Shown: positions 2,576 through 46,833 of the stretch, piece after piece
Layout: each line of letters begins with the position of its first letter
Numbering within the stretch: the stretch's first letter is position 1
Sequence record: NC_054637.1
From: Escherichia phage vB_EcoS Sa179lw
Reading direction: 5' to 3' (one strand)
DNA length: 46,833 nt
Position numbers and translations under genes: made by a program
Notes under the pieces: generated by a model
Seen by the model: the letters and a program-made list of their open reading frames with translations, nothing else
Databases searched by the model: none
Told to the model about the DNA's origin: nothing

Positions 2576-3646
2576 ATGGAAAAGATTATTTTTACCAAAG
2601 ATTTGGTGGCCAACTCCGCAGTGGTGGCTGACCAGTGGAAACATCTCACCATCGACCGTAAAGTGTTCTGCAACGCAGAAGCTGAGCTGGCGAAAACTTA
2701 CGGTGTTAACGCCACCGCACTGGTAACGAAAGATTACTGGCGCGACGTGGATAACGTCACCACCCGTGTTTTCCGCAACGAAGCTGGTCAGGACATGATG
2801 GCTGACCTGATGGGTATCGCGGCAAACATCAACATCGGTAAGACTGTGGCAATCAGCCGTATTGCTTCCGATGCTGGTAAGGTAGTCCGCACTCTGTCTG
2901 GTCAGGAGCCGGAAGATTTGGATAAAACCCGCTACGATTACACTGGCGATGTGATTCCAATCTTCAAGACTGGCTACAGCCGCGAATGGCGTGAGCTGCT
3001 GGGTATGCAGTCTGAAGGCTTCGACCCGCTGCTGGACGATCAGGCCAACGTTACCTTTAACCTGCGTTCCGACATGGCGCAATATCTGCTGACTGGCGAC
3101 CAGACTCTGAACGTGAATGGCGTTTACACTGGCTACGGCATCACCAACCACCCGAACACTGTTCAGGTTAACCTGAACGTTTCCGGTGGCCTGAATATCG
3201 ACCTGCAAACCGCAACGCCAGACGAAATCGTGAAATTCTTCAATCAGGATTTCCAGGCTATTCTGGATGCGCAGAACGTATTCGAGCAGGTTACCTTGTG
3301 GGTTTCTCCAGCAGTGCGTCGCAGCTTCATGCGCCCGTATTCTGATGCAGCTGGCTTCAAAGGCGGCACGGTTGAGCAGTACATCACTCAGTTCGGTAAT
3401 GGTCGCATTGGCAAGATTGGCACCAACTTCCTGCTGACTGGTAACCATTTCGTTGGCTACGTTCGCAACGACATGTACATCCGTCCGCGTGTTGCTCAGC
3501 CGGTTTCCACCTATGCGGCAGCTCGCGATAACCCGCACGATAACTTCAACTTCCTTGTGTGGTCAGCTTTTGGGCTTCAGGTGCGCAAGGATTTCACTGG
3601 CAAGTCCAAAGTGTTCAACGGATACGGTACGCAAACTCCGCTGTAA
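2576..3646 (+). CDS. Major capsid protein, 356 aa
   Basis: Size, position after scaffold/decoration genes, strong terminator immediately downstream. Confidence 0.7.
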   Translation: MEKIIFTKDLVANSAVVADQWKHLTIDRKVFCNAEAELAKTYGVNATALVTKDYWRDVDNVTTRVFRNEAGQDMMADLMGIAANINIGKTVAISRIASDAGKVVRTLSGQEPEDLDKTRYDYTGDVIPIFKTGYSREWRELLGMQSEGFDPLLDDQANVTFNLRSDMAQYLLTGDQTLNVNGVYTGYGITNHPNTVQVNLNVSGGLNIDLQTATPDEIVKFFNQDFQAILDAQNVFEQVTLWVSPAVRRSFMRPYSDAAGFKGGTVEQYITQFGNGRIGKIGTNFLLTGNHFVGYVRNDMYIRPRVAQPVSTYAAARDNPHDNFNFLVWSAFGLQVRKDFTGKSKVFNGYGTQTPL

Positions 3647-3649
3647 TAA

Positions 3650-3676
3650 AAAGGGGGCGAAAAGCCCCTTTGTAAA
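3650..3676 (+). terminator. Rho-independent terminator after the major capsid gene
   Basis: Hairpin AGGGGGCGAAAAGCCCCTTT followed by T-rich tract. Confidence 0.6.
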
Positions 3677-3689
3677 TTTGAGGTGAATA

Positions 3690-3887
3690 ATGGCTAAATA
3701 CGAAGTGATCGCTCGCGGAATCTTTGTAAAAGAGAAAGGCAAGATTCGTGAGTTACAGCTTGGCGAGGTGATTACCGAACCAGACGAGCACCTGCTACCA
3801 AAACTGCGCGTTATGCCAGAACTTGAAAAGTCTTTCGAAGTCGCAACCCCGCAAGAAAAGACGACAAAGAGAAAGAAAGCAGAGTAA
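3690..3887 (+). CDS. Hypothetical protein, 65 aa, lysine-rich C-terminus
   Basis: ORF with RBS GAGGTGA; flanked by terminators on both sides. Confidence 0.45.
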   Translation: MAKYEVIARGIFVKEKGKIRELQLGEVITEPDEHLLPKLRVMPELEKSFEVATPQEKTTKRKKAE

Positions 3888-3889
3888 AC

Positions 3890-3917
3890 TGAACCCGCAT
3901 AATGCGGGTTTTTTATT
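3890..3917 (+). terminator. Rho-independent terminator
   Basis: Hairpin AACCCGCATAATGCGGGTT followed by TTTTTTATT. Confidence 0.7.
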
Positions 3918-3927
3918 GGGGGTTTCT

Positions 3928-4776
3928 ATGGCTGTAAGATACGACATATTCACCACGCGGGAAGATGGTGAGGTGATGCTTGATGAACTGATGTCTGCTG
4001 ACTGGGCGGCGCTACAGGTTAACGTAATGCCGCTTGATTCATCTGGCGAATACACTCCACTTGTCAGCGGCACCGTGTCCGTTAAGGTATCACCATTTGA
4101 ATCAGGTGACTACTGGATTGATGTTAACAATAATAATTATTATGGCATGGCGCTACGCCTGAAGATAATCAAAAACCAGCTGCCAGTAGCGGTTAGTTCA
4201 CTGCGTGTTTCTGTGTGGCGCGCAGGAGTGTCGCCGCAATCGGTAGTTAACGTGTCGCCAGAAGTGAATGTGAGCAATGTCACTTCACAGTCATATTCTG
4301 AGCGAGCTAATAAGCAGGGTAAACTGTTCACTGCATCACGCAGAGTGACGGATGTCGCTGGTAGTTCAAACCTTGACAGCATATTCATCACCGGAACGAA
4401 GCAGGTAATATTCAACCAGCGCATTATTGGCTACACAGGAAAGGGCGTTGTTGCATCAATCTATCGTGGCGCGGTGGCTACTGGCGGAACTGCTGCGGAG
4501 ATTAATAACCCTAACGATATAACTCCGCAGGCAGCCACGGCGCAGCTACTTACTGGCGCTACGGTAACAAGCGTCGGGCAGCTAACGGTCGCGGCAACGT
4601 ACAGCGAGGGTAATGCTTCAAATCAGGGACAGGGGAACTCGCAGGCGCGGCTTGGTGAGCAAATCATCATGGCACCAAACACGACATATTTGCTTCGCAT
4701 AACATCACTGGATACGGCGGCGCAGAATATCAATGCGTATGTTTCGTGGTTTGAGGATGATACTTATCTGGCGTGA
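3928..4776 (+). CDS. Hypothetical protein, 282 aa, possibly virion-associated
   Basis: ATG at 3928; V/S/T/N/G-rich, Cys-free translation; flanked by terminators. Confidence 0.55.
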   Translation: MAVRYDIFTTREDGEVMLDELMSADWAALQVNVMPLDSSGEYTPLVSGTVSVKVSPFESGDYWIDVNNNNYYGMALRLKIIKNQLPVAVSSLRVSVWRAGVSPQSVVNVSPEVNVSNVTSQSYSERANKQGKLFTASRRVTDVAGSSNLDSIFITGTKQVIFNQRIIGYTGKGVVASIYRGAVATGGTAAEINNPNDITPQAATAQLLTGATVTSVGQLTVAATYSEGNASNQGQGNSQARLGEQIIMAPNTTYLLRITSLDTAAQNINAYVSWFEDDTYLA

Positions 4777-4782
4777 TAAAAG

Positions 4783-4807
4783 AAAAGCCCCGTAAAGGGG
4801 CTTTTGA
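4783..4807. terminator. Bidirectional terminator between convergent genes
   Basis: Hairpin AAAGCCCCGTAAAGGGGCTTT. Confidence 0.7.
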
Positions 4808-4810
4808 TTG

Positions 4811-7244: not shown

Positions 7245-7280
7245 CACTAACTATAAACGCCACTTCAATCTACGTCAACA
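7245..7280 (-). promoter_or_regulatory. Sigma70-like early promoter: TTGACG, 17-bp spacer, TATAGT (minus strand)
   Basis: -35 at 7273-7278 and -10 at 7250-7255 read on the minus strand; contains the recurring ATCTACGTCA motif. Confidence 0.6.
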
Positions 7281-7325
7281 GTAATATGCTAAAATCATGC
7301 TAATCAAACAACAGGAGATTCAAAC

Positions 7326-8913: not shown

Positions 8914-9311
8914 TGCCAGCGAAATTAAGAGGCGTCAGGCAGGCCGTAGAAAGAACATCGCAGATTGTGGATGAGATAATCGCCACGAAAGCTGTGCGCG
9001 CTATGAAGTCAGCGACATACATCATCCGCACAGAATCAGCCACGTTAACGCCGATTGATACATCGACGCTGATTAACAGCCAGTTTGATACCGTGGAAGT
9101 TAACGGAACGCGAATCACTGGTAGGGTTGGCTACTCTGCGAAATATGCCATTTACGTCCACAATGCCAGCGGTAAACTTGCAGGGAAACCGCGCAGCAAC
9201 GGCAATGGTACATACTGGTCGCCGGGCGGTGAACCGCAATTTTTAACCAAAGGTGCGCGGCGCACAAAAGACCTTGTTGATAGCGCAATTAAGAAGGAGA
9301 TGACACTGTGA
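8913..9311 (+). CDS. Putative tail completion protein (HK97 gp10-like), 132 aa
   Basis: Synteny and size. Confidence 0.45.
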   Translation: MPAKLRGVRQAVERTSQIVDEIIATKAVRAMKSATYIIRTESATLTPIDTSTLINSQFDTVEVNGTRITGRVGYSAKYAIYVHNASGKLAGKPRSNGNGTYWSPGGEPQFLTKGARRTKDLVDSAIKKEMTL

Positions 9312-9682
9312 ATATGCTTGAACTGGTTGATGCATATCTTCAGGATGCCGGATTATACGATGGCTGGACTTCGCAGTTGCAGTTCTGGAATGACACCGGA
9401 GACGGCAATGAGCAATTTATTGTCCTGCAATCCAACGGCGGCACACAGGTGATGGATGGCCTCGGCGGTGACTTCTATTTCTCGCTGTATATTGTCGGCA
9501 AACAAGGACAATACAACGTTCAGGATGTTGATGCGAAAGCCAATGAAATTATCGAATACATCAAGACGCATCCGATTGATTCATGCGTGAACTACATCCA
9601 GTTGCAGGCTCCGCTCGGACGACCAATGTTGACGGAAGAGAAGCGCCCTGTGCATGAGTTGCTTTTGCGGGTTGTGAAATAA
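9308..9682 (+). CDS. Putative tail terminator / neck protein, 124 aa
   Basis: Synteny; last gene before the terminator and major tail gene. Confidence 0.45.
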   Translation: MNMLELVDAYLQDAGLYDGWTSQLQFWNDTGDGNEQFIVLQSNGGTQVMDGLGGDFYFSLYIVGKQGQYNVQDVDAKANEIIEYIKTHPIDSCVNYIQLQAPLGRPMLTEEKRPVHELLLRVVK

Positions 9683-9686
9683 ATAA

Positions 9687-9712
9687 AGCCGCACGAAGCG
9701 GCCTTATTACTG
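9687..9712 (+). terminator. Candidate terminator
   Basis: Hairpin GCCGCACGAAGCGGC followed by a weak T tract. Confidence 0.4.
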
Positions 9713-9736
9713 GTTTAAGCATTGCCAGCGTGCTTT

Positions 9737-9801
9737 CTTAACATCCAGCCCCGTACCCATACATACCCCTACATATGATTGCGATAATGCTGGATGTTAA
9801 G
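9737..9801. repeat. Perfect 13-bp inverted repeat (CTTAACATCCAGC / GCTGGATGTTAAG) separated by 39 bp
   Basis: Read directly; lies in a 540-bp non-coding gap. Confidence 0.85.
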
Positions 9802-10174
9802 TGTTGTGGCTCTGGTGCCTCCAGATTGCTGGTCGGTAAATCCAGCAGGCAATCGCAAAACCAAATGGAGTGTATCTTTACCTTGCCGCGTGCGCATAGC
9901 CGCATTACCACAACGGAAAGAGCACTGAGACAAACGTCTTTGTCGCCTGCGCAAAGGGTTCGAGTTCCACTGATATGCGCCAATGCCCTCACCTGTTGTG
10001 CGCCCATTATTAATCACACCGGGCCAGTGCGCCGAATTTGTTTACAAGGAATCGGAAGACCTTGCTGATTTACAGGTTATTACGCCGCCATCAGAACAAC
10101 ATCATCGTTTGCATTTATCTTTGTGGTCAGTTTCTAAAAACCCGCAAAGTCGCTCACGAAAACTATCTGAAATA

Positions 10175-10222
10175 CAATCTACACCACAAAATAATACCTG
10201 TCAACACCTGTGATATAATCAC
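10175..10222 (+). promoter_or_regulatory. Candidate late promoter for the major tail gene: AATCTACACCAC ... TGTCAACACC ... TGATATAAT (extended -10)
   Basis: Extended -10 TGA+TATAAT at 10211-10219; poor -35; same architecture as 12184-12234. Confidence 0.5.
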
Positions 10223-10255
10223 CACGTTAGCAGCTAACACAATTCGGAGATCGAA

Positions 10256-10972
10256 ATGGCTATTTGTGCAAATGATAAAGGAGTTCTGGTCGGTCGCATG
10301 ACCAGACTGTTCCTTGCTGAAGGGTGCGGTGACGCAGTTCCGGAGGCAGGAGACTGGAAGTATTTAGGTTCAACCACCAGTAAAGGAGTTGACTACTCGC
10401 CGCAGACCACTACGTCGGAAGCGGATACCGCTGGCGGCTTTGTTTCCACTCTCGTTACCAGCTCTGATATGACCATCAGCGCAGAGGTGGAAATCCGCAA
10501 GAATGACCCGAGCGATGAGTTTGGATTCCATCGTCTTGTTGAGATTTACGCCACTGAACTGAAAGCGCGTCGCCAGCCCTCTCTGTGGGTGCGTCAGGTT
10601 ACTGGTGCAACTATCGTTACCGCGTACTGCAACATTACCAGCATCAGCTACGAAGGTGGCACGAACGACATCGTCACTGGCAGCCTTGAGTTCAAGGTTT
10701 ACGATTCTGACAGCGTTACCGTCGAAAGCCTTGAACCTCTGGCATTCACTACCGACCTGCAATCAACTGGTAGCACTGGCAGCCCGTTAACTGTTGCTGT
10801 TGAAGGTGGCGTTGCTCCTTACACTTATGTATGGCGCAAAGATGGTGTGGTTGTTGGTAGTGAGTCTGGCGCTTCACTGGCAAGCCCAACCGCTGGCGTG
10901 TATACAGTTACCGTTACCGACTCATCTACTGACCCTGAAATTATTATCAGTACGGCCTGCACAGTATCCTGA
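10256..10972 (+). CDS. Major tail protein with C-terminal Ig-like domain, 238 aa
   Basis: Position upstream of tail assembly and tape measure genes; C-terminal segment VAPYTYVWRKDG...GVYTVTVTDS is Ig-like. Confidence 0.6.
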   Translation: MAICANDKGVLVGRMTRLFLAEGCGDAVPEAGDWKYLGSTTSKGVDYSPQTTTSEADTAGGFVSTLVTSSDMTISAEVEIRKNDPSDEFGFHRLVEIYATELKARRQPSLWVRQVTGATIVTAYCNITSISYEGGTNDIVTGSLEFKVYDSDSVTVESLEPLAFTTDLQSTGSTGSPLTVAVEGGVAPYTYVWRKDGVVVGSESGASLASPTAGVYTVTVTDSSTDPEIIISTACTVS

Positions 10973-10975
10973 TAA

Positions 10976-11008
10976 AGAAAAAGCCCCGAAAGGGGCTTTG
11001 TTTATTCT
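10976..11008. terminator. Bidirectional terminator
   Basis: Hairpin AAAGCCCCGAAAGGGGCTTT followed by GTTTATT. Confidence 0.7.
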
Positions 11009-11199
11009 TGTGGAGGTCCCGGTAGCGGCATCCAGTGGTCGAAGGTGGTCTGTGCTAATTCATCATATTCGTTGTACCAGTCACTCCATGACTCCCCATC
11101 CCAACAAAAAACATTTTTCTGCACTACCTCATTCACGCATACCAAAACAGCGACGTTCGTAGGAGGCATCATCTCACTACACTTAATCCACTGGCTCAT
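11002..11199 (-). CDS. DUF551-like small protein, 65 aa
   Basis: W-rich translation ending DHWMPLPGPP, as recalled for DUF551 phage proteins. Confidence 0.55.
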   Translation of the reverse strand: MSQWIKCSEMMPPTNVAVLVCVNEVVQKNVFCWDGESWSDWYNEYDELAQTTFDHWMPLPGPPQE

Positions 11200-11486
11200 A
11201 ATCCTTCCTCATTCATCTTCAGGAAAACAATCATGGCGGCGCGTAGTGGGTTTCTGTCTTCAGTGGTGAACTTTGAAGCCACGCCAAATGCCGTTGGCCA
11301 AGCCTGTGGGATGGTGTATTGATATGGCACGACTGCGATATGGTTTTCAACAATAATAGGCCATGCATCAGCTGGGTTGCTGCAGTAGTCTTTTGCCTTA
11401 AATGAATTCAATCCTGAAATTTGCATAATCTCTGCGTGCACACGGCAGTTAATTTCAAAATCACTCATCTCTTCATAATTTTTCAT
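11196..11486 (-). CDS. Hypothetical protein, 96 aa
   Basis: ORF track; overlapping start/stop. Confidence 0.45.
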   Translation of the reverse strand: MKNYEEMSDFEINCRVHAEIMQISGLNSFKAKDYCSNPADAWPIIVENHIAVVPYQYTIPQAWPTAFGVASKFTTEDRNPLRAAMIVFLKMNEEGL

Positions 11487-11626
11487 ATCACCTTATCCTC
11501 ATCAAAAATCACACCAATCACACGAAGCAAGTCTTTCGCCATGCGCTCAGCCTCTTCGTAATCGTAACCTGCATCAACATACAGCTCTGTGTAGAAAATC
11601 AGGTCTGATTTTGTTTGTTCGTTCAT
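11483..11626 (-). CDS. Hypothetical acidic protein, 47 aa
   Basis: Manual translation MNEQTKSDLIFYTELYVDAGYDYEEAERMAKDLL...; coupled to neighbours. Confidence 0.3.
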   Translation of the reverse strand: MNEQTKSDLIFYTELYVDAGYDYEEAERMAKDLLRVIGVIFDEDKVI

Positions 11627-11829
11627 TTCTTGTCGCCACTGTTAACTAATGCCCAAACAAGTGCTGCAACCCAACCAATAAAGCTCCATCCGACAAGAAT
11701 ATTCAGCACACAGATTGCGGTAGTATTTGTATGCTTTCTTTGCAATGCCACAAATGATGGGAGAAGATAAGCAAATATCACCAATCCAGCGAAAAACAAC
11801 AAAATAACAACGTCCATAGCTAACCTCAA
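11623..11829 (-). CDS. Small membrane protein, 68 aa, two hydrophobic segments
   Basis: Translation VVILLFFAGLVIFAYLL and ILVGWSFIGWVAALVWALV. Confidence 0.5.
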   Translation of the reverse strand: MRLAMDVVILLFFAGLVIFAYLLPSFVALQRKHTNTTAICVLNILVGWSFIGWVAALVWALVNSGDKK

Positions 11830-11849
11830 CTGTTAATAACTTGTTTATA

Positions 11850-12143
11850 TTACATGCCATTCTTTTCGCACAAAGCAACAGATACATCACGCAATTGCTC
11901 TTTGGTCATATCATTGCGTGCATAAACCATTTCTACGATAGCAAGGCCGATTATTTCTGCTGATTCGTTGTTTTTTGTGGAACCCTTAACTACCACCTCG
12001 GCAAGATTCTTGCTGATACCGTTATCTCGAGCATCGGCAGTGTTCATGGCGACTTCTCCGATGCTTTTACAAACCTCAGAGGTTGCACTCACCGCAAAGG
12101 AGGAAGCAAACAGCACTGATGCAATCAACATTTTAATTTTCAT
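11850..12143 (-). CDS. Secreted or periplasmic protein with N-terminal signal peptide, 97 aa
   Basis: MKIKMLIASVLFASSFAVSA signal-like N-terminus; RBS GAGGTGAG. Confidence 0.55.
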   Translation of the reverse strand: MKIKMLIASVLFASSFAVSATSEVCKSIGEVAMNTADARDNGISKNLAEVVVKGSTKNNESAEIIGLAIVEMVYARNDMTKEQLRDVSVALCEKNGM

Positions 12144-12183
12144 AACTCACCTCATTTATTCATCACTCGTTTCGATGACTTTA

Positions 12184-12234
12184 ATCTACATCACCACCTC
12201 ACAGGTGTCAACACCACCGAGATGATATAATCAA
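12184..12234 (+). promoter_or_regulatory. Candidate late promoter for the tail assembly / tape measure operon; same architecture as 10175-10222
   Basis: AATCTACATCACC ... TGTCAACACC ... TGATATAAT at 12223-12231. Confidence 0.5.
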
Positions 12235-12251: not shown

Positions 12252-12968
12252 ATGCAAAACATGAGCAATCGCACGCCACTAACAGAAATCGGAGAGATGC
12301 GCATCTCGCTTTCTGACAGGAGTTTTTTCTTTAAGCCATCATTCCGCGCCATGAATGAAATCGGCACACCAAAAGAAATCGTAGAGGTGTACGCAAGACT
12401 CAATGGCATTGATTATGTTGCGCCATTGCAGCACGTCGAATACCTGCCATTTGGCGCTCAGATGCAGGTTATGAAGACCATTAGCAAGCCTGTGTATGGT
12501 CGACACGTGCTGAGTGCCGCCTATATCGTCATGCAGTCATGCTGTGAAGATGATATTTCTGTGCTGATTGGTGGATGGAAGCCAACGCCGCGCGGCGTGC
12601 GATACGTTCCCGGCATCATGCCAGTGAGCGACATTATTATTATTGCGCGCAACCTGATGCAGCATGGCATCATCGGCAAATCACCACTCAAAGTTCCTGA
12701 ACGTCTGGAAGAGCAGGGCAAGAAAACCACAAACGAATTTCATGCGTCACAGTACATTATCTCAGCGCGCACGCATTTCGACATGACGCGTGATGAGGCT
12801 GAAAACCTGTCCATGACAGAGTTTCAGATGATGATCAAGAATAAATATCCGGAGCCGAAGGGGCTGACAAAAGAAGAGCGCGCGGCAGAGTACGATCAGG
12901 CTAAGGCAGACCGTGAGCGCATGAAGGCACTGGCTGAACGCAAAGCGAAAAAAGCGAGGAATATATAA
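12252..12968 (+). CDS. Putative tail assembly chaperone, 238 aa
   Basis: Immediately upstream of, and coupled (TAATG) to, the tape measure gene. Confidence 0.45.
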   Translation: MQNMSNRTPLTEIGEMRISLSDRSFFFKPSFRAMNEIGTPKEIVEVYARLNGIDYVAPLQHVEYLPFGAQMQVMKTISKPVYGRHVLSAAYIVMQSCCEDDISVLIGGWKPTPRGVRYVPGIMPVSDIIIIARNLMQHGIIGKSPLKVPERLEEQGKKTTNEFHASQYIISARTHFDMTRDEAENLSMTEFQMMIKNKYPEPKGLTKEERAAEYDQAKADRERMKALAERKAKKARNI

Positions 12969-15909
12969 TGGCTGAAGAAGTCGGCGGAATTGTTTATGAA
13001 GTCGGGATGGATGTATCCGGGCTTAAAGCTGGCGCAAGCTCAGCGGAATCAGAATTATCAAAATTTGACTCCGCTGTAAGTGGCTCCACGAAGAATTTAA
13101 ATAAACTTGACGGGCAAGCGGATTCGACTGGGAAGGAGTTTTCCTCTCTGATCTCCGTAGTTAAAAGCATTGATGCCACACTGAGTAAAATGGCTACCTC
13201 AAGCGATGGTGCATCAAGCGCAGTCAAAGCCACTTCGCAATCTGCTGAGTCAGCAAATCAGGTTATTGATGCATTAAATCAGCAACTGGCAATGATGCAG
13301 CAACAACAGCAACAAGCTGCTGTATCAACCGGAAGGCTGGAAACATCAATTAACGCCGTAACAACCGCAATTCGCGAACTTGGAACGTCAACTGGTGGTG
13401 CTGGAGCAAGTATATCTGGCACAGAAAGACTGATTGAAAGCCTCGGAAATCAGGTCGCTATTCTTGAAGAACAAATGGAGAACGGAGCGAGGAGTGCGGC
13501 AATTCTTGCGGCACAACTACGTGCTGGTGATGGTGCCACGGATGCACAAAAGGCTAAGATTGCTGAACTGACTGGTCGCCTGTATGACATGAAGAATGGC
13601 ACAGAGTCGGCTGGCAAATCCACAAATGGATTCAGGAATGCGCTACAACAGGGAGGCTATCAGGTTCAGGACTTTATTGTTCAGGTTCAGGGTGGTCAGT
13701 CTGCTCTTGTTGCATTCAGTCAGCAGGGTTCTCAACTCGCCTCTGTATTCAGTCCGGTAGCTGGCGCAGTATTGACAATAGCGACAGTTATTGCTGGTTC
13801 TCTGTTGGCATCGCTGAGCAATGGAAAGAATGCCATTGATGCAATGAAGGATGCCATTTCTGCAATGGATCAGGTTATCAGTGTTTCCAGTAATGGCGTG
13901 GCAGCATACTCAGATAAGTTTGCAGCACTAGCAAAAGCCAACACAACTGTTGCAACGCTGATGCGCCAGCAGGCGCAACTTGAACTATCCGCTGCACTAT
14001 CTAAAGCATCAAAGGAAGTATCAAAAGCATCCGGTGAGTTCGTCACCTTTGGTGACAGACTTTTCGCATCTTTTGCTGGTGCAAACGTCAGCGTTAAATC
14101 ATTCAACGATTACCTCTCAATGCTGAATATCACCACCAATGATTTTAGCGAGGCAATGAAGCAGGCTGCATCTGCCGGACTTGCCGGGCAATCTACGATG
14201 AATAACATGATTGCTACGGTTGGCGCTCTGGCAAGTCGCTTTGACCTGACAGACCAGCAGGCATTTGAGTTTGCCAAGCAGCTTTCAGAGATTGCGAAAA
14301 ATCCGAGCAATGAAAAACTTAATGAGTTAATTGTTACTCTGCAAAAGGTAGGTGAAGGCCAGTCATCTGGCGCTCAAAAAGCCAGAGAGTATGCCGCTCG
14401 TTTGCTGGAAATTGCAACCACAACAACTGACGCAACAATGCGTCTGAAAGCCCTTAAGGAAATGACAGATAACCTGACATCAAGTCAGGACAGGGCATTG
14501 CAAACTGCTCGCCAGACATTATTTATTGAGAAGCAAACTGGCGATGAAAAACTAAAAGCTCAGGCGTGGCGTGATGCGGAGGCGCAGGGGTTAAAGCAGA
14601 ACACTGCCGCTTTCCGCGAATACTACAATGTGCGCCTTGAAACCTACCGCCAACAGGAAAGGAATGCGCAGGCAGCAAAAGATGAGCGCAATGCAAATAA
14701 CCAGCTTAAGACAGAGTTAAAGCAACAAGAAACAATCCAGCAAAAATTAAATAAACTTCGCGATGAGGCTTTGCTCGCTGGTCAGGCAGAATCAACAAAA
14801 GAACTCTCCCGTGAACAAGCTATTCTTAATGCTCAGCAGTCGCTTGGCAAGGCGGCTACTCAGGAGCAGATAAAGCTGGCTGGAGAATACGCCGCTAAGA
14901 TTTGGGACCAGAAGAATGCGTTGAAGGAGCAGGCAGCAGCGGAGAAGGAAAGGCAGCGTGTAGAAAAATCATATCAGGGACTACGCGCCATTGCGTCGCC
15001 AACATCTGGCATTGATAGCGAATACCAGCAGCGTATGGCTGACCTTGATGCTTATGCTGCTGCGTACCCGCAGAAAATTACGGAGATTGAACAGACTCGC
15101 GCATCGATTGAAGCACAATACCGCCAGCAGAGAATGGATGCTATGTGGGATGAATGGCAGCAGCAAAGCCTCGGGGCGCAACTGTTCGGCACAGCACTGG
15201 ATTCTGCGATGAGCACAGCATCAAACAGTATTACCGGATTACTGACAGGCACAATGAGCGTTCAGGATGCCATGCGTAGTCTCGGCTCTACGGTGCTTAA
15301 CTCACTGGTAAACAGCTTCGTCGAGATGGGCGTGCAGTGGGTGAAATCTGCGGTAATGGGGCAGACAGCACAGGTTGCAGCGACTGCTACCACAACGGCG
15401 GCGCAAACAGCGGGATTGGCAACTACCACAGCAGCCTCCACTGCGGCGGCAGCCACCACCACGGCGGCATGGACCCCCGCTGCAATCGTTGCGTCAATCG
15501 GTTCATTTGGTGGGGCGGCTGCAATTGGTGTAGGTGCTGTCCTTGGGGCGCTGGCGATGGGTATTGCTGGTAAGCGCAAGAATGGCGGTCCTGTTAGCGC
15601 TGGAAGTATGTATGAAGTGGGTGAAAATGGCTTACCTGAGATATTCCAGGCATCCAACGGTCGCCAGTACATGATTCCAGGAAATGATGGGTCCGTTATT
15701 AGCAACAAAGACCTTACCGGAGGTGATGGAGGAGTTGTGGTTTATAATAACGTTATCAACAACAGCTCTGCTCAGGTTAGTAGCAGCGCCAGAGATAACG
15801 GTGATGGCAGCGTGACAATTGAGACTATAGTTAGTGACATCGAGAACAACGGCCCTATAGGGCAAAGCATTAGCCGCAACTACTCAGCAAACCGGAGAGC
15901 AACAGAATA

Positions 15910-15910
<1 letters not shown>
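12968..15910 (+). CDS. Tail tape measure protein, 980 aa
   Basis: Length; coiled-coil-like Q/A/E/K-rich regions; Ala/Thr-rich hydrophobic C-terminal segment; position. Confidence 0.85.
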
Positions 15911-30356: not shown

Positions 30357-30591
30357 ATTTGCCAGCTATTTGCCAGCTATTTTCCAATGATAAGTTACTG
30401 ATTTTTAACTATTTACCCTAATTTCCTATTTGACACGGCTCTAAACGATATTTGATGTCCGGGAATAAAATTTATAGACCACCCGTGGCAAATAGGGCAA
30501 ATAGAAAATAGAAAAAAACAAAAGCAAAAACAGCAACTTAAAAACAAAAAAGTTTGGCAAATAGAAAGAAAATAGAAAGAAAATAGAAAAC
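30357..30591. repeat. Iteron cluster: tandem TTGCCAGCTAT x2, GGCAAATAG x3, AAAATAGAAAG x3, with A-rich tract; candidate replication origin or operator array
   Basis: Direct reading; non-coding; flanked by divergent promoters and an AT-rich stretch at 30640-30780. Confidence 0.7.
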
Positions 30592-30789
30592 AGGAAACAA
30601 ACCACAAGTAACCAGCTTAACTGCTGGTTTTCGTGTTTCTGTGAACTAAGTTATTAATATCTATAATAAATATAAAGAAGATCTTAATATACTTTATAGA
30701 TGTAATAAACAAAGGTTACTATTAATAATATATGTAACTATATGCTTAAGCTAGCGTTCACTAACATCTATTAATATTTTTCTCCATGT

Positions 30790-30825
30790 GCATTGACGTA
30801 GAATCATTGTTGATGTAGATTAAAA
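30790..30825 (+). promoter_or_regulatory. Rightward early promoter: TTGACG, 17-bp spacer, TAGATT
   Basis: -35 at 30793-30798, -10 at 30816-30821; carries inverted copies of the ATCTAC(A/G)TC motif. Confidence 0.6.
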
Positions 30826-35723: not shown

Positions 35724-35767
35724 TGCCTTATCCTAATTCATCTGCGACCCCGCGCCGCTCTATGAGT

Positions 35768-35800
35768 TAAATCTACATCACCAACATATCTACGTCAACA
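35768..35800 (-). promoter_or_regulatory. Leftward early promoter: TTGACG, 17-bp spacer, TAGATT (minus strand)
   Basis: -35 at 35793-35798, -10 at 35770-35775 on the minus strand. Confidence 0.55.
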
Positions 35801-35834
35801 TTTATTATTGTTGTTGATAAATCCACACCACAAC

Positions 35835-35868
35835 ACTTGACCAATCTACACCGTGCGCATATAGTTAT
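35835..35868 (+). promoter_or_regulatory. Rightward early promoter: TTGACC, 17-bp spacer, TATAGT
   Basis: -35 at 35837-35842, -10 at 35860-35865; AATCTACACC in the spacer. Confidence 0.6.
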
Positions 35869-35896
35869 CTACATCGGAAACATCGGAGGTGCTACT

Positions 35897-41522: not shown

Positions 41523-41544
41523 TTTCATCACCTCACTCATCATT

Positions 41545-41585
41545 TGATGTAGATACTATGCACCACCACTCAATCTACGTCAATA
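41545..41585 (-). promoter_or_regulatory. Candidate leftward early promoter with TTGACGTAGATTG motif (minus strand)
   Basis: -35 TTGACG at 41578-41583 on the minus strand; -10 TAGTAT lies at 19-bp spacing, so the exact -10 is uncertain. Confidence 0.4.
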
Positions 41586-41627
41586 GCCATTGTGATAGAA
41601 TTAATCATTATTTGAACAGGAGGCAGA

Positions 41628-42718: not shown

Positions 42719-43210
42719 ATGATGGCAATTCTCACTAAATACTGGCGACCGCTGGCAATTATTATAATTGTCGCTATCTGCGCGCTATGGGTTGTTAACA
42801 AGGTGTCCAGCTATGGTGAGCAGAGATACAACGACGGGTATGCGAAGGCTGTAGCAGAACAGAAGGCCGCAAACAAAAAAGAGGAGCAACGACGCAATGC
42901 AGAACTGCAAAAGATTCAGGCTGACGCACAACAAAGGATTGATGCTGCGCGCAACGATGCTGTCAACGCTGCTGCTAAGTCTGGCAGGTTGCAGCAACAG
43001 CTCGCAAATATCCGCAAGCAGCTTGTCGGATATTCCGCCGCTGAGTTCATTGGCAATCCAGCCGCAGAAACCGGAGTTTTGCTTGCCGACGTGCTCAGCA
43101 AATCTGTCGAAAGAAATCGACAGCTGGCAGATTACGCTGACAGGGCAAGAGAAGCAGGATTAGCGTGTGAGGCGCAGTACAATTCGCTGCGCAATAAAAA
43201 AGCCCCGTAA
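42719..43210 (+). CDS. Rz: Rz-like i-spanin, 163 aa
   Basis: N-terminal TM segment followed by coiled-coil-like Q/A/R/E-rich periplasmic domain; position after the endolysin. Confidence 0.65.
   Translation: MMAILTKYWRPLAIIIIVAICALWVVNKVSSYGEQRYNDGYAKAVAEQKAANKKEEQRRNAELQKIQADAQQRIDAARNDAVNAAAKSGRLQQQLANIRKQLVGYSAAEFIGNPAAETGVLLADVLSKSVERNRQLADYADRAREAGLACEAQYNSLRNKKAP
42942..43163 (+). CDS. Rz1: Rz1-like o-spanin lipoprotein, embedded in the +1 frame of the Rz-like gene
   Basis: Lipobox-like LSLAGC followed by a Pro-rich segment; entirely within the Rz-like gene. Confidence 0.55.
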   Translation: MLRATMLSTLLLSLAGCSNSSQISASSLSDIPPLSSLAIQPQKPEFCLPTCSANLSKEIDSWQITLTGQEKQD

Positions 43211-43228
43211 TGGGGCTTGTGTTTAATT
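43196..43228. terminator. Bidirectional terminator after the lysis cassette
   Basis: Hairpin AAAAAGCCCCGTAATGGGGCTT followed by GTGTTT. Confidence 0.65.
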
Positions 43229-44625: not shown

Positions 44626-44725
44626 ATTTACTACTCCTTTTTCGAAATTATTGTTGACCAATCTACATCATTTAGTCAATACTTATTGACGTAGATTGTA
44701 CCACAACGGAAAAGGTGATGTGGAA

Positions 44726-46351: not shown

Positions 46352-46739
46352 GCATAAATCCGGCAGAACTCTGTTTGTGACATCAGATGAGTTTATTGCC
46401 AATAACCGTAGAAAGATGGGCTGGATAGTGGAGGAAGTGAAGATGACGAGTAGAGAGCGGTTTGAAGAAGAAATGAGCGATAAATATGAGTGGTTCAGTG
46501 ATGCGATCGCTTGTGCTGATTTTTGCGGTGACGATGATGATGGCTACTATGTTGGCGGTGATTATCTCTATTATGGAACTTCATGTTCAGAGGCTTTGTT
46601 CTGGTTATGGCGAGGATGGCAGGCATCGCGAGCGGCTATTCAGATTCAGGCATGCCCATACCCAAACAACCACGGACCACATGTTGATGACTATTACCTC
46701 GACCAAATTAACAACGCAGGCTTAAAGGTAAAAAAATGA
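46335..46739 (+). CDS. Hypothetical protein, 134 aa, with acidic Cys-containing segment
   Basis: ORF track; coupled (ATGA) to the gene at 30-356 via the duplicated end. Confidence 0.5.
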   Translation: MRWAIKHKSGRTLFVTSDEFIANNRRKMGWIVEEVKMTSRERFEEEMSDKYEWFSDAIACADFCGDDDDGYYVGGDYLYYGTSCSEALFWLWRGWQASRAAIQIQACPYPNNHGPHVDDYYLDQINNAGLKVKK

Positions 46740-46833
46740 TTATCCAGTTAAACGACATCATGAAAGCAGACATTATTCAGCTTGAAGATTATGACATGCA
46801 GCTGGCGTTTGAAATTGAAACCGTTGAGCGGCA
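46707..46833. repeat. Second copy of the 127-bp terminal duplication
   Basis: Identical to bases 1-127. Confidence 0.9.

Follow-up and report, generated by a model that had tools for sequence, protein, structure and literature searches.

Predicted back-to-back sigma-70 promoter pairs in the tail module of Escherichia phage vB_EcoS Sa179lw, one of them preceding a tmRNA-like RNA with a leader complementary to host tmRNA

It was found that two sites in the tail module of Escherichia phage vB_EcoS Sa179lw (sequence record NC_054637.1; the window is the whole stretch analysed, 46,833 nucleotides) have the layout of compact back-to-back pairs of host sigma-70 promoters. The leftward members (P-1 and P-2) are predicted to drive minus-strand accessory units, and the unit at site 1 would be a tmRNA-derived RNA; I put the probability of this reading at roughly 70%. 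An unannotated RNA, partly mimicking the host tmRNA and complementary to it, appears to be driven by P-1 and is found in hundreds of enterobacterial phages. The phage genome is circular and 46.7 kb in size. The features of the two sites and their surroundings are as follows.

9702..9677, minus strand: terminator-like hairpin (GCCGC-UUCGU-GCGGC, then UUUAUUUAUUU) next to the end of the tail terminator gene
10204..10176, minus strand: predicted promoter P-1, with -35 TTGACA (10204..10199), a 17-nt spacer and -10 TAGATT (10181..10176)
10211..10219, plus strand: predicted promoter P+1, an extended -10 TGATATAAT with no -35, before the major tail gene (ATG at 10256)
10256..10972, plus strand: major tail protein gene, C-terminal Ig-like part (phrog_853, E 1e-86)
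10980..10999, both strands: bidirectional intrinsic terminator separating the major tail gene from the cassette end, called on both strands by the scan
11002..12143, minus strand: accessory (moron) cassette of five genes, namely a phrog_2315 protein, an Imm superinfection immunity protein, a 47-aa protein, NinX and DUF551
12211..12183, minus strand: predicted promoter P-2, with TTGACA (12211..12206), 17 nt and TAGATT (12188..12183)
12223..12231, plus strand: predicted promoter P+2, an extended -10 TGATATAAT, before the DUF6246 gene (ATG at 12252) and the tape measure gene
12252..15910, plus strand: DUF6246 gene, occupying the place of a tail assembly chaperone, and tape measure gene
30793..30821, plus strand: member of the same promoter family, TTGACG-17-TAGATT, heading a plus-strand operon
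35798..35770, minus strand: member of the same promoter family, TTGACG-17-TAGATT, heading a minus-strand gene

A repeat search groups the two sites as one family (D3), with three co-linear blocks common to 10176-10221 and 12183-12233. Block 1 is AATCTACACCAC at 10176-10187 and AATCTACATCAC at 12183-12194, block 2 is TGTCAACACC at 10199-10208 and 12206-12215, and block 3 is TGATATAATCA at 10211-10221 and 12223-12233. Blocks 1 and 2 are 11 nt apart at both sites, and the gap between blocks 2 and 3 is 2 nt at site 1 versus 7 nt at site 2. Single blocks are unremarkable: TGTCAACACC, with at most one mismatch, has 4 matches versus 3.35 expected, and TGATATAATCA has 4 versus 1.37. The co-linear combination is far above chance. 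The gapped local alignment of the two sites scores 22.5 against a background of 7.0 +/- 1.9 (6238 60-nt genome tiles, both strands), and site 2 is the top non-self match. The sequence-only reading was right that the two regions share the same order of elements, that one lies before the major tail gene and the other before the DUF6246 and tape measure genes, that a minus-strand cassette lies between them, and that each carries a perfect TGnTATAAT on the plus strand with no -35.

The identity of the blocks has to be revised. It had been proposed that AATCTACAYCAC and TGTCAACACC are upstream elements of plus-strand promoters, whereas the minus strand reads TAGATT and TTGACA there, at a spacing of 17 nt. 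On the minus strand the first two blocks thus form a predicted near-consensus sigma-70 promoter. Of the three, only the last (TGATATAAT, a perfect extended -10 with TG one base upstream of the -10 hexamer at both sites) belongs to a plus-strand promoter. The hexamers 17 nt upstream of the plus-strand -10s are ATAATA (site 1) and AGGTGT (site 2), neither of which is a -35. Since extended -10 promoters function without a -35 and without an activator, the missing -35 is no sign of activator dependence.

Is each site then one composite activator-dependent late promoter of the plus strand, in which a phage activator bound to AATCTACAYCAC and TGTCAACACC offsets the missing -35? I consider this very unlikely. 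The absence of a -35 at 17 nt from TATAAT at either site, the late (tail) genes downstream of both and the 19 AATCTACAYCAC-like words in the genome (versus 6.7 expected), as a regulator site might show, would agree with it, but GTAGATT-containing promoter regions account for the excess of the word. Between TGTCAA and TGnTATAAT the distance is different at each of four homologous sites (6, 11, 2 and 0 nt), whereas the spacing between the first two blocks is fixed at 17/18 nt; such a variable distance is incompatible with an activator site of fixed geometry, and no upstream site at a fixed distance was found. Moreover, these blocks are sigma-70 hexamers on the opposite strand, the same pair occurs at 30793 and 35798 without TGATATAAT behind it, and TGnTATAAT requires no activator.

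Both minus-strand promoters score 10/12 in the promoter scan, and TAGATT is only a 4/6 match to TATAAT. Since sigma-70-like sites are not in excess in the generic scan (19 versus 22.1 in shuffles), the case for the promoters is built on recurrence and conservation. As to recurrence, exact TTGACR-N17-TAGATT occurs four times in the window, versus 0.62 expected even with one mismatch allowed, and the copies at 30793 (plus strand) and 35798 (minus strand) are each followed by a Shine-Dalgarno sequence and a start codon. The copy at 35770..35798 lies within a divergent promoter region, with a plus-strand TTGACC-17-TATAGT at about 35838-35866 (by eye). The predicted start of P-2, at about 12176, is followed by GAGGTGAG and the ATG at 12143, the Shine-Dalgarno sequence and ATG of the cassette being 33 nt below the start. 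The predicted start of P-1 is at about 10169-10168, with the ORF-less RNA spacer downstream. As to conservation, six relatives keep both hexamers, the 17/18-nt spacing and TGnTATAAT, and the spacing is invariably 17 nt except for 18 nt in one distant homologue. At site 2 of the Klebsiella phage MK54, both hexamers are kept around an unrelated 18-nt spacer sequence; in this phage, spacer sequences have diverged and the distance between the paired promoters is altered. P+1 is kept in relatives and directly abuts TGTCAACA in MK54. Thus, near-consensus hexamers, a 16-18 nt spacer, a downstream gene or RNA and conservation in relatives were found at both sites. The earlier proposal to compare homologous phages bore out TGnTATAAT, even in the distant Klebsiella phage, but not a constant distance between the blocks and the -10.

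Alternatively, the repeats might chiefly serve mobile cassettes as recombination or boundary sequences, as in the promoter-stem-loop elements of T4-type phages, with promoter activity secondary or absent. At both sites the cargo varies among relatives, the cassette differing in gene content, while the flanking elements, a promoter block and, opposite it, a repeated terminator hairpin, are kept. Homology ends just downstream of the -10, as it does after the -10 of P-1 in the comparison of cargo types with Skate-type relatives, and the hairpin of 10980..10999 has similar copies at 4778-4809 and 43193-43224. However, such a role is compatible with promoter function and presupposes that the blocks are regulatory modules. 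MK54 keeps only the hexamers and their spacing, not the surrounding sequence, which suggests that selection acts on promoter function and not on a recombination substrate. I consider a mainly recombinational role quite unlikely. The two sites are hot spots of cargo exchange among relatives.

In the preferred reading of divergent promoter pairs, the leftward TTGACA-17 nt-TAGATT would represent a recurrent phage promoter family that drives a minus-strand accessory unit inside the plus-strand tail module. The P-2 unit would be the five-gene Imm/NinX/DUF551 cassette, closed by the bidirectional terminator at 10999..10980, whose equivalent is annotated as a both-strand terminator in phage Skate. 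The P-1 unit would be an RNA gene closed by the hairpin and U tract at 9702..9677. For this hairpin (9688-9702) the scan calls the plus strand only, and the better minus-strand U tract UUUAUUUAUUU was read directly from the sequence; a G+C-rich hairpin with a U tract, as in intrinsic terminators, is present both here and at 10980-10999. The rightward TGATATAAT promoter would restart tail transcription after each insulated unit, from 10211 for the major tail gene (predicted start about 10224-10227) and from 12223 for the DUF6246 and tape measure genes. That the tail genes form at least two separately driven units, as had been claimed, is plausible, since each site comes after a terminator-like hairpin. 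The extended -10 sits 25-40 nt 5′ of the Shine-Dalgarno sequence and ATG of the next tail gene. The predicted starts within a pair are about 57-62 bp apart, and because the two promoter footprints overlap, only one promoter of a pair can be occupied at a time. I infer that, where both members fire, there is probably competition for RNA polymerase.

On the minus strand, the spacer below site 1 contains the following features.

10169..9981, minus strand: tmRNA-like RNA core without tRNA domain, comprising the leader, tag frame, stop-codon hairpin, two pseudoknots and the start of a long helix
10165..10125, minus strand: 5′ leader, antisense to host ssrA nt ~57-106
10112..10077, minus strand: tag frame, GCA AAC GAU GAU GUU GUU CUG AUG GCG GCG UAA UAA
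10094..10065, minus strand: hairpin around the stop codons
10064..10045, minus strand: hairpin B, whose loop pairs downstream to give pseudoknot a
10031..10015, minus strand: helix C, whose loop pairs with 10006..10000 to give pseudoknot b
10000..9981 with 9927..9909, minus strand: long helix enclosing a variable insert, from the MFE fold

The cargo of site 1 would thus be a structured RNA core of about 190 nt, derived from tmRNA and devoid of the tRNA-like domain. A six-frame search of the spacer (9700-10255) gave no credible ORF: those with 30 aa or more all look unlike real proteins and overlap one another, and the spacer was therefore treated as non-coding. The small ORFs that are annotated here in Bas79 and Skate overlap with the RNA or with the corresponding spacer. 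KFS-SE2 and Skate carry minus-strand genes for tRNA-Arg and tRNA-Met, or for tRNA-Ile, in this spacer, so a minus-strand promoter is needed there.

The tag frame has ten codons, encoding ANDDVVLMAA, followed by two stops, and AUAAAU lies just 5′ of it. It has the parts of an mRNA-like domain: a resume codon, a short tag ending in hydrophobic residues and Ala, and a stop. The frame is conserved with synonymous changes (20 DNA versions, 11 peptides), many of the tag sequences having been gathered by a pattern that fixes codons 1-3 and 9-10. The stop codon lies in a hairpin followed by two pseudoknots, with covariation; the resemblance to tmRNA is architectural only, and no sequence similarity to E. 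coli PK2-PK4 was seen by eye. In an alignment of 28 sequences, 88% of the cells are paired, versus 33-47% in slid controls, and none of 500 shuffles reaches the observed pairing. Changes on both sides were found at 17 of the 27 pairs. Five of the six helices have compensatory changes (helix 2 is the exception), and the G-U pairs fit the minus strand only. The homologues have the same long-helix flanks with different inserts.

The tRNA-like domain was sought and not found. ARAGORN called no tRNA or tmRNA in the whole window and Rfam gave no match at the gathering score, the best match being tmRNA_permuted with 28.3 bits (E 7e-4) versus the 47-bit gathering score, driven by the tag region. Neither an acceptor stem with G3-U70 nor a T-arm nor a 3′ CCA was found (Rfam RF00023 and RF04321; ARAGORN), no tmRNA was called in 20 homologous loci, and only about 58 nt separate the predicted start from the resume codon. 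A domain hidden 3′ of the pseudoknots was also considered. In warpig, the tRNA-like sequence that has G3-U70 and CCA belongs to a neighbouring tRNA, a weak one (33.4 bits), in homologue L119 a normal tRNA-Arg takes that place, and in homologue L026 the long helix is merely capped by a tetraloop; thus, the domain is not in the conserved core. A candidate plus-strand tRNA (9891-9981, ending GGGTTCGAGTTCC...GCGCCA) was not called by ARAGORN or by the Rfam tRNA model even at E <=10; it is on the wrong strand and falls within the long helix's variable insert. The minimum-energy fold also pairs the leader (UUUGCGGGUU) with sequence 3′ of the stops, a helix for which inspection by eye found no support in St11Ph5 or warpig. 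In homologue L007, from a lambdoid prophage, the insert contains a hammerhead-like core (CUGACGAG...CGAAAC); Rfam does not call it at the gathering score, and it is no more than a lead.

The core is present, unannotated, in 729 phage records, including the model phage P1, Felix O1-like phages, Kuttervirus and others, which is about 1.4% of deposited phage genomes and includes phages for therapy or biocontrol. Across unrelated phage groups the core identity is 72-97%, and the predicted RNA is common to P1, Felix O1-like, Kuttervirus, Gamaleyavirus, Skatevirus-like and lambdoid phages. The RNA shares its strand with neighbouring tRNA genes in P1, St11Ph5 and warpig, and several lineages have a sigma-70 -10 6-12 nt upstream of GUUUUCG (by eye). 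No description of the RNA or its tags was found in the literature searched, most subscription journals being outside its reach.

The leader is complementary to host ssrA in five blocks, given here by their pairing positions.

UAGUUUUCGU: ssrA 97-106
GCGAC: ssrA 87-91
UUUGCGG: ssrA 75-81
UUUUUA: ssrA 68-73
GAAACUGACC: ssrA 57-66

The first 45 nt or so of the RNA thereby span the 3′ half of ssrA pseudoknot 1, the resume codon and tag codons 1-6. The invariant leader columns (alignment A4) coincide with the ssrA-pairing blocks and not with the element's own tag; a leader hairpin given by RNAalifold (A4 columns 41-44 with 53-56) lacks covariation and was reinterpreted as part of the antisense block. 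The reverse complements of 17 of the 22 leaders align to ssrA 68-106 with scores of 26-43, versus a null of 16 +/- 2.3, and 0-2 of 1000 shuffles reach such a score. For most long-leader members, the duplex energy with ssrA is -39 to -49 kcal/mol, versus -15 to -28 with the RNA's own tag region, and the z-scores of the leader-ssrA duplex are -3.5 to -6.5; RNAduplex is heavy-tailed, and for three leaders the best of 250 decoys nearly equals ssrA. Short-leader members of the family have weak complementarity to E. coli ssrA. In RNAcofold (185-nt RNA plus ssrA), the minimum-energy dimer chose other pairs and did not recover the leader duplex, pseudoknots being outside its model. In sum, an extended, conserved complementarity to one target site is present above chance, as in antisense RNAs, and I infer that an RNA accumulating from P-1 might pair with host tmRNA. 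The exact 39-nt ssrA target is present in the genomes of 64 species, mostly Enterobacteriaceae and without Salmonella among them; being identical, it offers no variation for a co-evolution test in trans.

The segment might instead be a functionless, decaying remnant of a captured or permuted tmRNA gene, with the leader complementarity as a by-product of an inverted duplication. The absence of the tRNA-like domain agrees with this, as does the co-fold that did not favour the leader-ssrA duplex, and viral contigs do contain genuine permuted tmRNA genes whose resume regions are very similar (47 of 129 segments are called by ARAGORN). However, the core is kept at such identity in many records of unrelated phages, with compensatory changes in most helices and synonymous changes in the tag. 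In addition, the leader positions that vary least are exactly the ones that can pair with host ssrA, and a promoter stands at the 5′ edge of the RNA in several lineages. I consider a remnant unlikely.

For a tmRNA-derived RNA under P-1, a possible but doubtful mechanism is that the leader anneals to host tmRNA at nt ~57-106, the intermolecular helix replaces pseudoknot 1, and the charged tRNA-like domain of the host moves ribosomes to the phage tag template. Annealing would unfold pseudoknot 1, whose boundary in ssrA I take to be at nt 78, and would hide the resume codon and the first tag codons of the host within the helix. The phage resume codon would lie 12 nt beyond the intermolecular helix, and the host spacer is 11 nt (counted on the ssrA sequence). 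The alanine-charged tRNA-like domain of the host would deliver ribosomes onto the phage template, and rescued proteins would get ANDDVVLMAA-type tags in place of ANDENYALAA. SspB and ClpX use the ENY and LAA residues of the tag, which the ANDDVVLMAA-type tags lack. If true, the phage would in this way reprogram trans-translation, or at the minimum block it.

The promoter pair itself is ordinary, and would indicate how a virulent siphovirus insulates opposite-strand units in its tail operon and restarts late transcription. The importance lies in the cargo of site 1, a tmRNA tag template that lacks the tRNA-like domain and has a leader complementary to host tmRNA. If the RNA acts on trans-translation, it would give phages a new means of interfering with ribosome rescue and the tagging of proteins, one open to direct tests in E. 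coli.

How do these elements compare with known systems? Morons, a concept of Juhala and Hendrix, are autonomous accessory transcription units inside lambdoid late operons. Likewise, Imm, NinX and DUF551 lie in a structural module with their own predicted sigma-70 promoter and a terminator, and the content is variable; unlike morons, the present units lie on the opposite strand with bidirectional terminators and a back-to-back plus-strand restart promoter, and one unit carries RNA genes instead of proteins. The predicted plus-strand members resemble extended -10 promoters such as galP1 in the perfect TGnTATAAT, the lack of a recognisable -35 and the suitable distance to the gene start, but here the would-be -35 region is the core of a predicted divergent promoter. 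In the promoter-early stem-loop (PeSL) cassettes of T4-type phages, repeated promoter and stem-loop modules bound variable cassettes and homology breaks at the modules, as it does here; the phage group, the sequences and the divergent promoter pairs are different. The RNA shares with tmRNA (ssrA, including the two-piece permuted tmRNAs of phages) the resume GCA after U(-5)A(-4), a ten-codon tag running from AND to hydrophobic residues and Ala, and double stops in a hairpin followed by pseudoknots. In contrast to tmRNA, it has no acceptor stem, T-arm or CCA in this genome, the nucleotides before its resume codon are antisense to host tmRNA, and it falls below the Rfam thresholds with no ARAGORN call. 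Mycobacteriophage DS6A has a CDS-less tmRNA consisting of the tRNA domain only, which is reported to inhibit host tmRNA in E. coli (as cited in PMC11915505). Both are partial tmRNAs encoded by a phage and may interfere with trans-translation of the host, but the DS6A RNA keeps the tRNA-like domain and lacks the tag, whereas the present RNA combines a tag, pseudoknots and an antisense leader without a tRNA-like domain.

The two sites (10176-10221 and 12183-12233) lie in a complete circularly permuted or assembled-circular genome of ~46.7 kb, with bases 1-127 identical to 46707-46833 (127 nt). A search with the 5-kb tail region showed ~90% identity to Shigella phage DS8 (Deseoctovirus), Escherichia phages C1 and Bas79, and Salmonella Skatevirus phages. 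The relevant features are as follows.

Features around the two sites and further promoter copies
9308-9682: tail terminator gene (PF23842)
10169..9981, minus: tmRNA-like RNA element
10204..10176, minus: TTGACA-17 nt-TAGATT (promoter scan)
10211-10219, plus: extended -10
10256-10972: major tail gene (phrog_853)
12143..11002, minus: five-gene accessory cassette, with Imm superinfection immunity (PF14373), NinX and DUF551 among the genes
12211..12183, minus: TTGACA-17 nt-TAGATT (promoter scan)
12223-12231, plus: extended -10
12252-12968: DUF6246 gene, followed by the tape measure gene (980 aa)
30793, plus, and 35798, minus: further TTGACR-N17-TAGATT copies, each followed by a Shine-Dalgarno sequence and a start codon

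The sequence-only reading had described two near-duplicate sites of three co-linear blocks, flanking a minus-strand cassette. The blocks are indeed where it placed them, the gene annotation agrees on the cassette, and aligning site 1 to site 2 scores 22.5, where all other 60-nt tiles give 7.0 +/- 1.9. Jointly, the blocks form a repeat family (D3) in a repeat search of the window, while single short blocks, taken alone, occur near chance frequency. It was found that the first two blocks, TGTCAA(CACC) and AATCTA(CAYCAC), are the reverse complements of TTGACA and TAGATT. The genome contains exact matches to TTGACR-N17-TAGATT at four places, versus 0.62 expected even with one mismatch allowed, and GTGRTGTAGATT or TTGATGTAGATT is common to all four, from just upstream of the -10 through it. 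Thus, the first two blocks make up one leftward member of the phage's own sigma-70 promoter family, and TGATATAAT is the only block belonging to the rightward promoter. As had been noticed, the plus strand lacks a -35; at both sites TGATATAAT is a perfect extended -10 without one.

Both sites are nearly identical to those of the window in Bas79, DS8, KFS-SE2, CECAV_048, and Skate. More telling is Klebsiella phage MK54, which keeps TAGATT, TTGACA, and TGnTATAAT at both sites, with different intervening sequences. Its hexamers remain 17 or 18 nt apart, but TGnTATAAT follows TGTCAA after 2 and 0 nt, versus 6 and 11 nt in the window. Constant spacing inside the minus-strand element and free spacing to the plus-strand -10 fit two independent promoters. 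The earlier proposal of a single activator-dependent late promoter per site is not supported by this comparison, since the distance between its elements is not fixed across homologues.

GTAGATT/AATCTAC words are also clustered in the intergenic regions 35762-35870, 41544-41586, 44660-44698, and 7250-7281, where they adjoin TTGAC in both orientations, some as inverted pairs. TTGACGTAGATTG occurs at 7278, 41583, and 44686, and an inverted pair 24 nt apart lies at 44660-44697. These clusters may be more divergent promoter regions or regulator sites. Directly upstream of the 30793 promoter, an ORF-poor stretch has a purine-rich direct repeat (GGCAAATAGAAAATAGAAA..., 30496-30607), which could serve as an origin or as a group of binding sites.

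What do the leftward promoters serve? At site 2, the predicted minus-strand start (~12176) is followed by GAGGTGAG and the cassette ATG at 12143. The cassette ends in a terminator (10980-10999) called on both strands, and annotated on both strands in Skate. Similar terminator hairpins (AAAAGCCCCGNAANGGGGCTTT) occur three times (4778-4809, 10973-11004, and 43193-43224); like the promoters, the terminators form a repeated family. At site 1, the minus-strand promoter points into 550 nt of spacer in which no credible ORF was found. The far end of this spacer is a minus-strand hairpin (9702..9688) followed by UUUAUUUAUUU. The equivalent spacer carries minus-strand tRNA-Arg and tRNA-Met genes in KFS-SE2 and a tRNA-Ile gene in Skate, and homology between cargo types breaks just downstream of the -10. 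In the spacer of relatives, small hypothetical ORFs (L001, Bas79 locus 3492-4156; L011, Skate locus 3013-3527) or a 58-nt 'tRNA-Ser' (L002, 2307-2364) are annotated; the Bas79 ORFs, which may be spurious, lie on the other strand across from the conserved RNA and overlap it. The terminator-like hairpins would be expected to halt plus-strand late transcription too, so the obvious job of the plus-strand extended -10 promoters would be to restart it. The sites are probably pairs of divergent promoters, which would serve two insulated units on the minus strand and two tail units whose transcription is restarted (probability about 0.7).

The spacer below site 1 is predicted to encode a tmRNA-like RNA. 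Across the whole window, ARAGORN and Rfam called no tRNA or tmRNA. Under permissive settings, Rfam gave a tmRNA_permuted match on the minus strand that stays below threshold (28.3 bits versus a gathering score of 47; E 7e-4), based on AUAAAU GCA AAC GAU GAU GUU GUU CUG AUG GCG GCG UAA UAA. This frame encodes ANDDVVLMAA followed by two stops, and it is kept with synonymous changes, 20 DNA versions giving 11 peptides (e.g., ANDDLMMVAA, ANDSEVLMAA, and ANDNVFLAVA); many of these tag sequences were collected by a pattern search with codons 1-3 and 9-10 fixed. The structure was tested on a 28-sequence alignment, and comprises a stop-codon hairpin, a second hairpin, and a third helix; the loops of the second hairpin and of the third helix each pair downstream, making two pseudoknots. 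Paired cells amount to 88%, versus 33-47% in controls with partners slid by 1-3 columns; 17 of 27 pairs changed on both sides (5-12 in slid controls), and the covariation score is 0.371 (0.07-0.15). No shuffle out of 500 matched the observed value for four of five measures, and 20 did for "further standard pair types". Frequent G-U pairs are compatible with the minus strand only.

The 163-nt core was found in 729 of 50,697 phage records, almost always unannotated, from phages of Salmonella, Escherichia, Klebsiella, Shigella, Erwinia, Citrobacter, and Serratia. It is also present in 656 of 5426 complete E. coli genomes, with 554 of 704 places on plasmids. Adjacent tRNA genes, wherever present, lie on the strand corresponding to the window's minus strand.

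Locations of the core in other phages
P1 (L003, record 68791-68979): leader of the C1-controlled ban operon, directly downstream of an annotated dicF-like region and upstream of tRNA-Asn/Thr
Felix O1-like phages: within a tRNA array
Gamaleyavirus St11Ph5: adjoining tRNA-Ala
Kuttervirus: present
Lambdoid E. coli prophage: between Q and holin

A plain remnant without function seems unlikely, as the covariation and the wide distribution count against it.

The coding half is tmRNA-like, but the defining tRNA-like feature is missing, and the element was therefore not classed as a tmRNA. ARAGORN and Rfam gave no match to it in 20 homologous loci, while ARAGORN found genuine permuted (two-piece) tmRNA genes in 47 of 129 IMG/VR segments sharing the resume region (L012-L131). 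Among these are contigs 150-360 kb long, and ANDELFALAA, ANDEQFALAA, and ANDESYALAA are examples of the tags. Across from the RNA, the plus strand has a tRNA 3'-half-like sequence at 9891-9981, GGGTTCGAGTTCC...TATGCGCCA; GCGCATA, 90 nt further upstream, matches it. Neither ARAGORN nor the Rfam tRNA model called a tRNA there. Phage warpig has a weak tRNA-like gene (L006, 1382-1460; 33.4 bits) overlapping the start annotated for an HNH endonuclease gene, with a UCU anticodon loop, no normal D-arm, G3-U70, and an encoded CCA. In the window (9909-10000, minus) and in L033, L007, L021, L072, and L098, variable inserts are enclosed by a long helix in which CACAACAGGURAGRGCAUUG pairs with CAGUGCUCUUUCCGUUGUG. 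Lambdoid prophage contigs have this helix repeated in tandem around the tmRNA-like element. The L033 insert contains a hairpin and a canonical T-arm, and that of L007 a hammerhead-like core, CUGACGAG...CGAAAC; neither gave an Rfam call at the gathering score.

The leader, ~45 nt from the predicted start to the tag template, is the reverse complement of E. coli ssrA.

Leader blocks (minus strand) and their ssrA partners
UAGUUUUCGU, 10165..10156: ssrA 97-106, tag codons 3-6
GCGAC, 10153..10149: ssrA 87-91, including the resume codon G90 C91
UUUGCGG, 10148..10142: ssrA 75-81
UUUUUA, 10140..10135: ssrA 68-73, placed by hand (script matched elsewhere)
GAAACUGACC, 10134..10125: ssrA 57-66, 8/10 pairs by hand pairing

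The reverse complements of 17 of the 22 distinct leaders aligned to ssrA 68-106, with scores of 26-43; 1000 dinucleotide shuffles gave 16 +/- 2.3, and 0-2 of them scored as high as the real leader. RNAduplex gave -39 to -49 kcal/mol with ssrA for long-leader members (z -3.5 to -6.5), and far weaker values (-15 to -28 kcal/mol) for the same leaders with their own tag region. For five of six leaders tested, 0-2 of 250 decoys outranked or equalled ssrA. For the warpig leader the signal is marginal, with z at -2.3 and 11 of 250 decoys doing as well as ssrA. Members with short leaders have weak matches to E. coli ssrA, and the duplex did not come out of a full co-fold. The invariant leader columns of the 28-sequence alignment (GUUUUCG, GCG, and UU) are the pairing blocks. 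An exact copy of the 39-nt ssrA target occurs in the genomes of 64 species, most of them Enterobacteriaceae. Several lineages have a sigma-70 -10 located 6-12 nt upstream of GUUUUCG (TAGATT in the window, TATAGT in warpig and L053, and TATGAT in L026), which places the antisense block at the very 5' end of the predicted primary transcript.

There is roughly an even chance that the RNA interacts with the host tmRNA. An intermolecular leader-ssrA helix could replace pseudoknot 1 and would then present the phage tag template to ribosomes having accepted the host's tRNA-like domain; this specific mechanism is rather doubtful. Two features favor the tag-template reading. In four long-leader members, judged by eye, the helix and the phage resume codon are always separated by 12 nt; the E. 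coli spacer is 11 nt, counted on the ssrA sequence from the PK1 boundary. In addition, U(-5)A(-4), the positions that set the frame in E. coli tmRNA, are conserved in the element.

Divergent sigma-70 promoters, extended -10 promoters, and morons are all already known. No description of the tmRNA-like RNA was found in Rfam 15, ARAGORN output, or the literature searched. A recent tmRNA database paper (PMC11915505) lists 79 phage tmRNAs, using methods that need the tRNA-like domain. A phage tmRNA without a tag, which is the converse form, is the only such case that it mentions.
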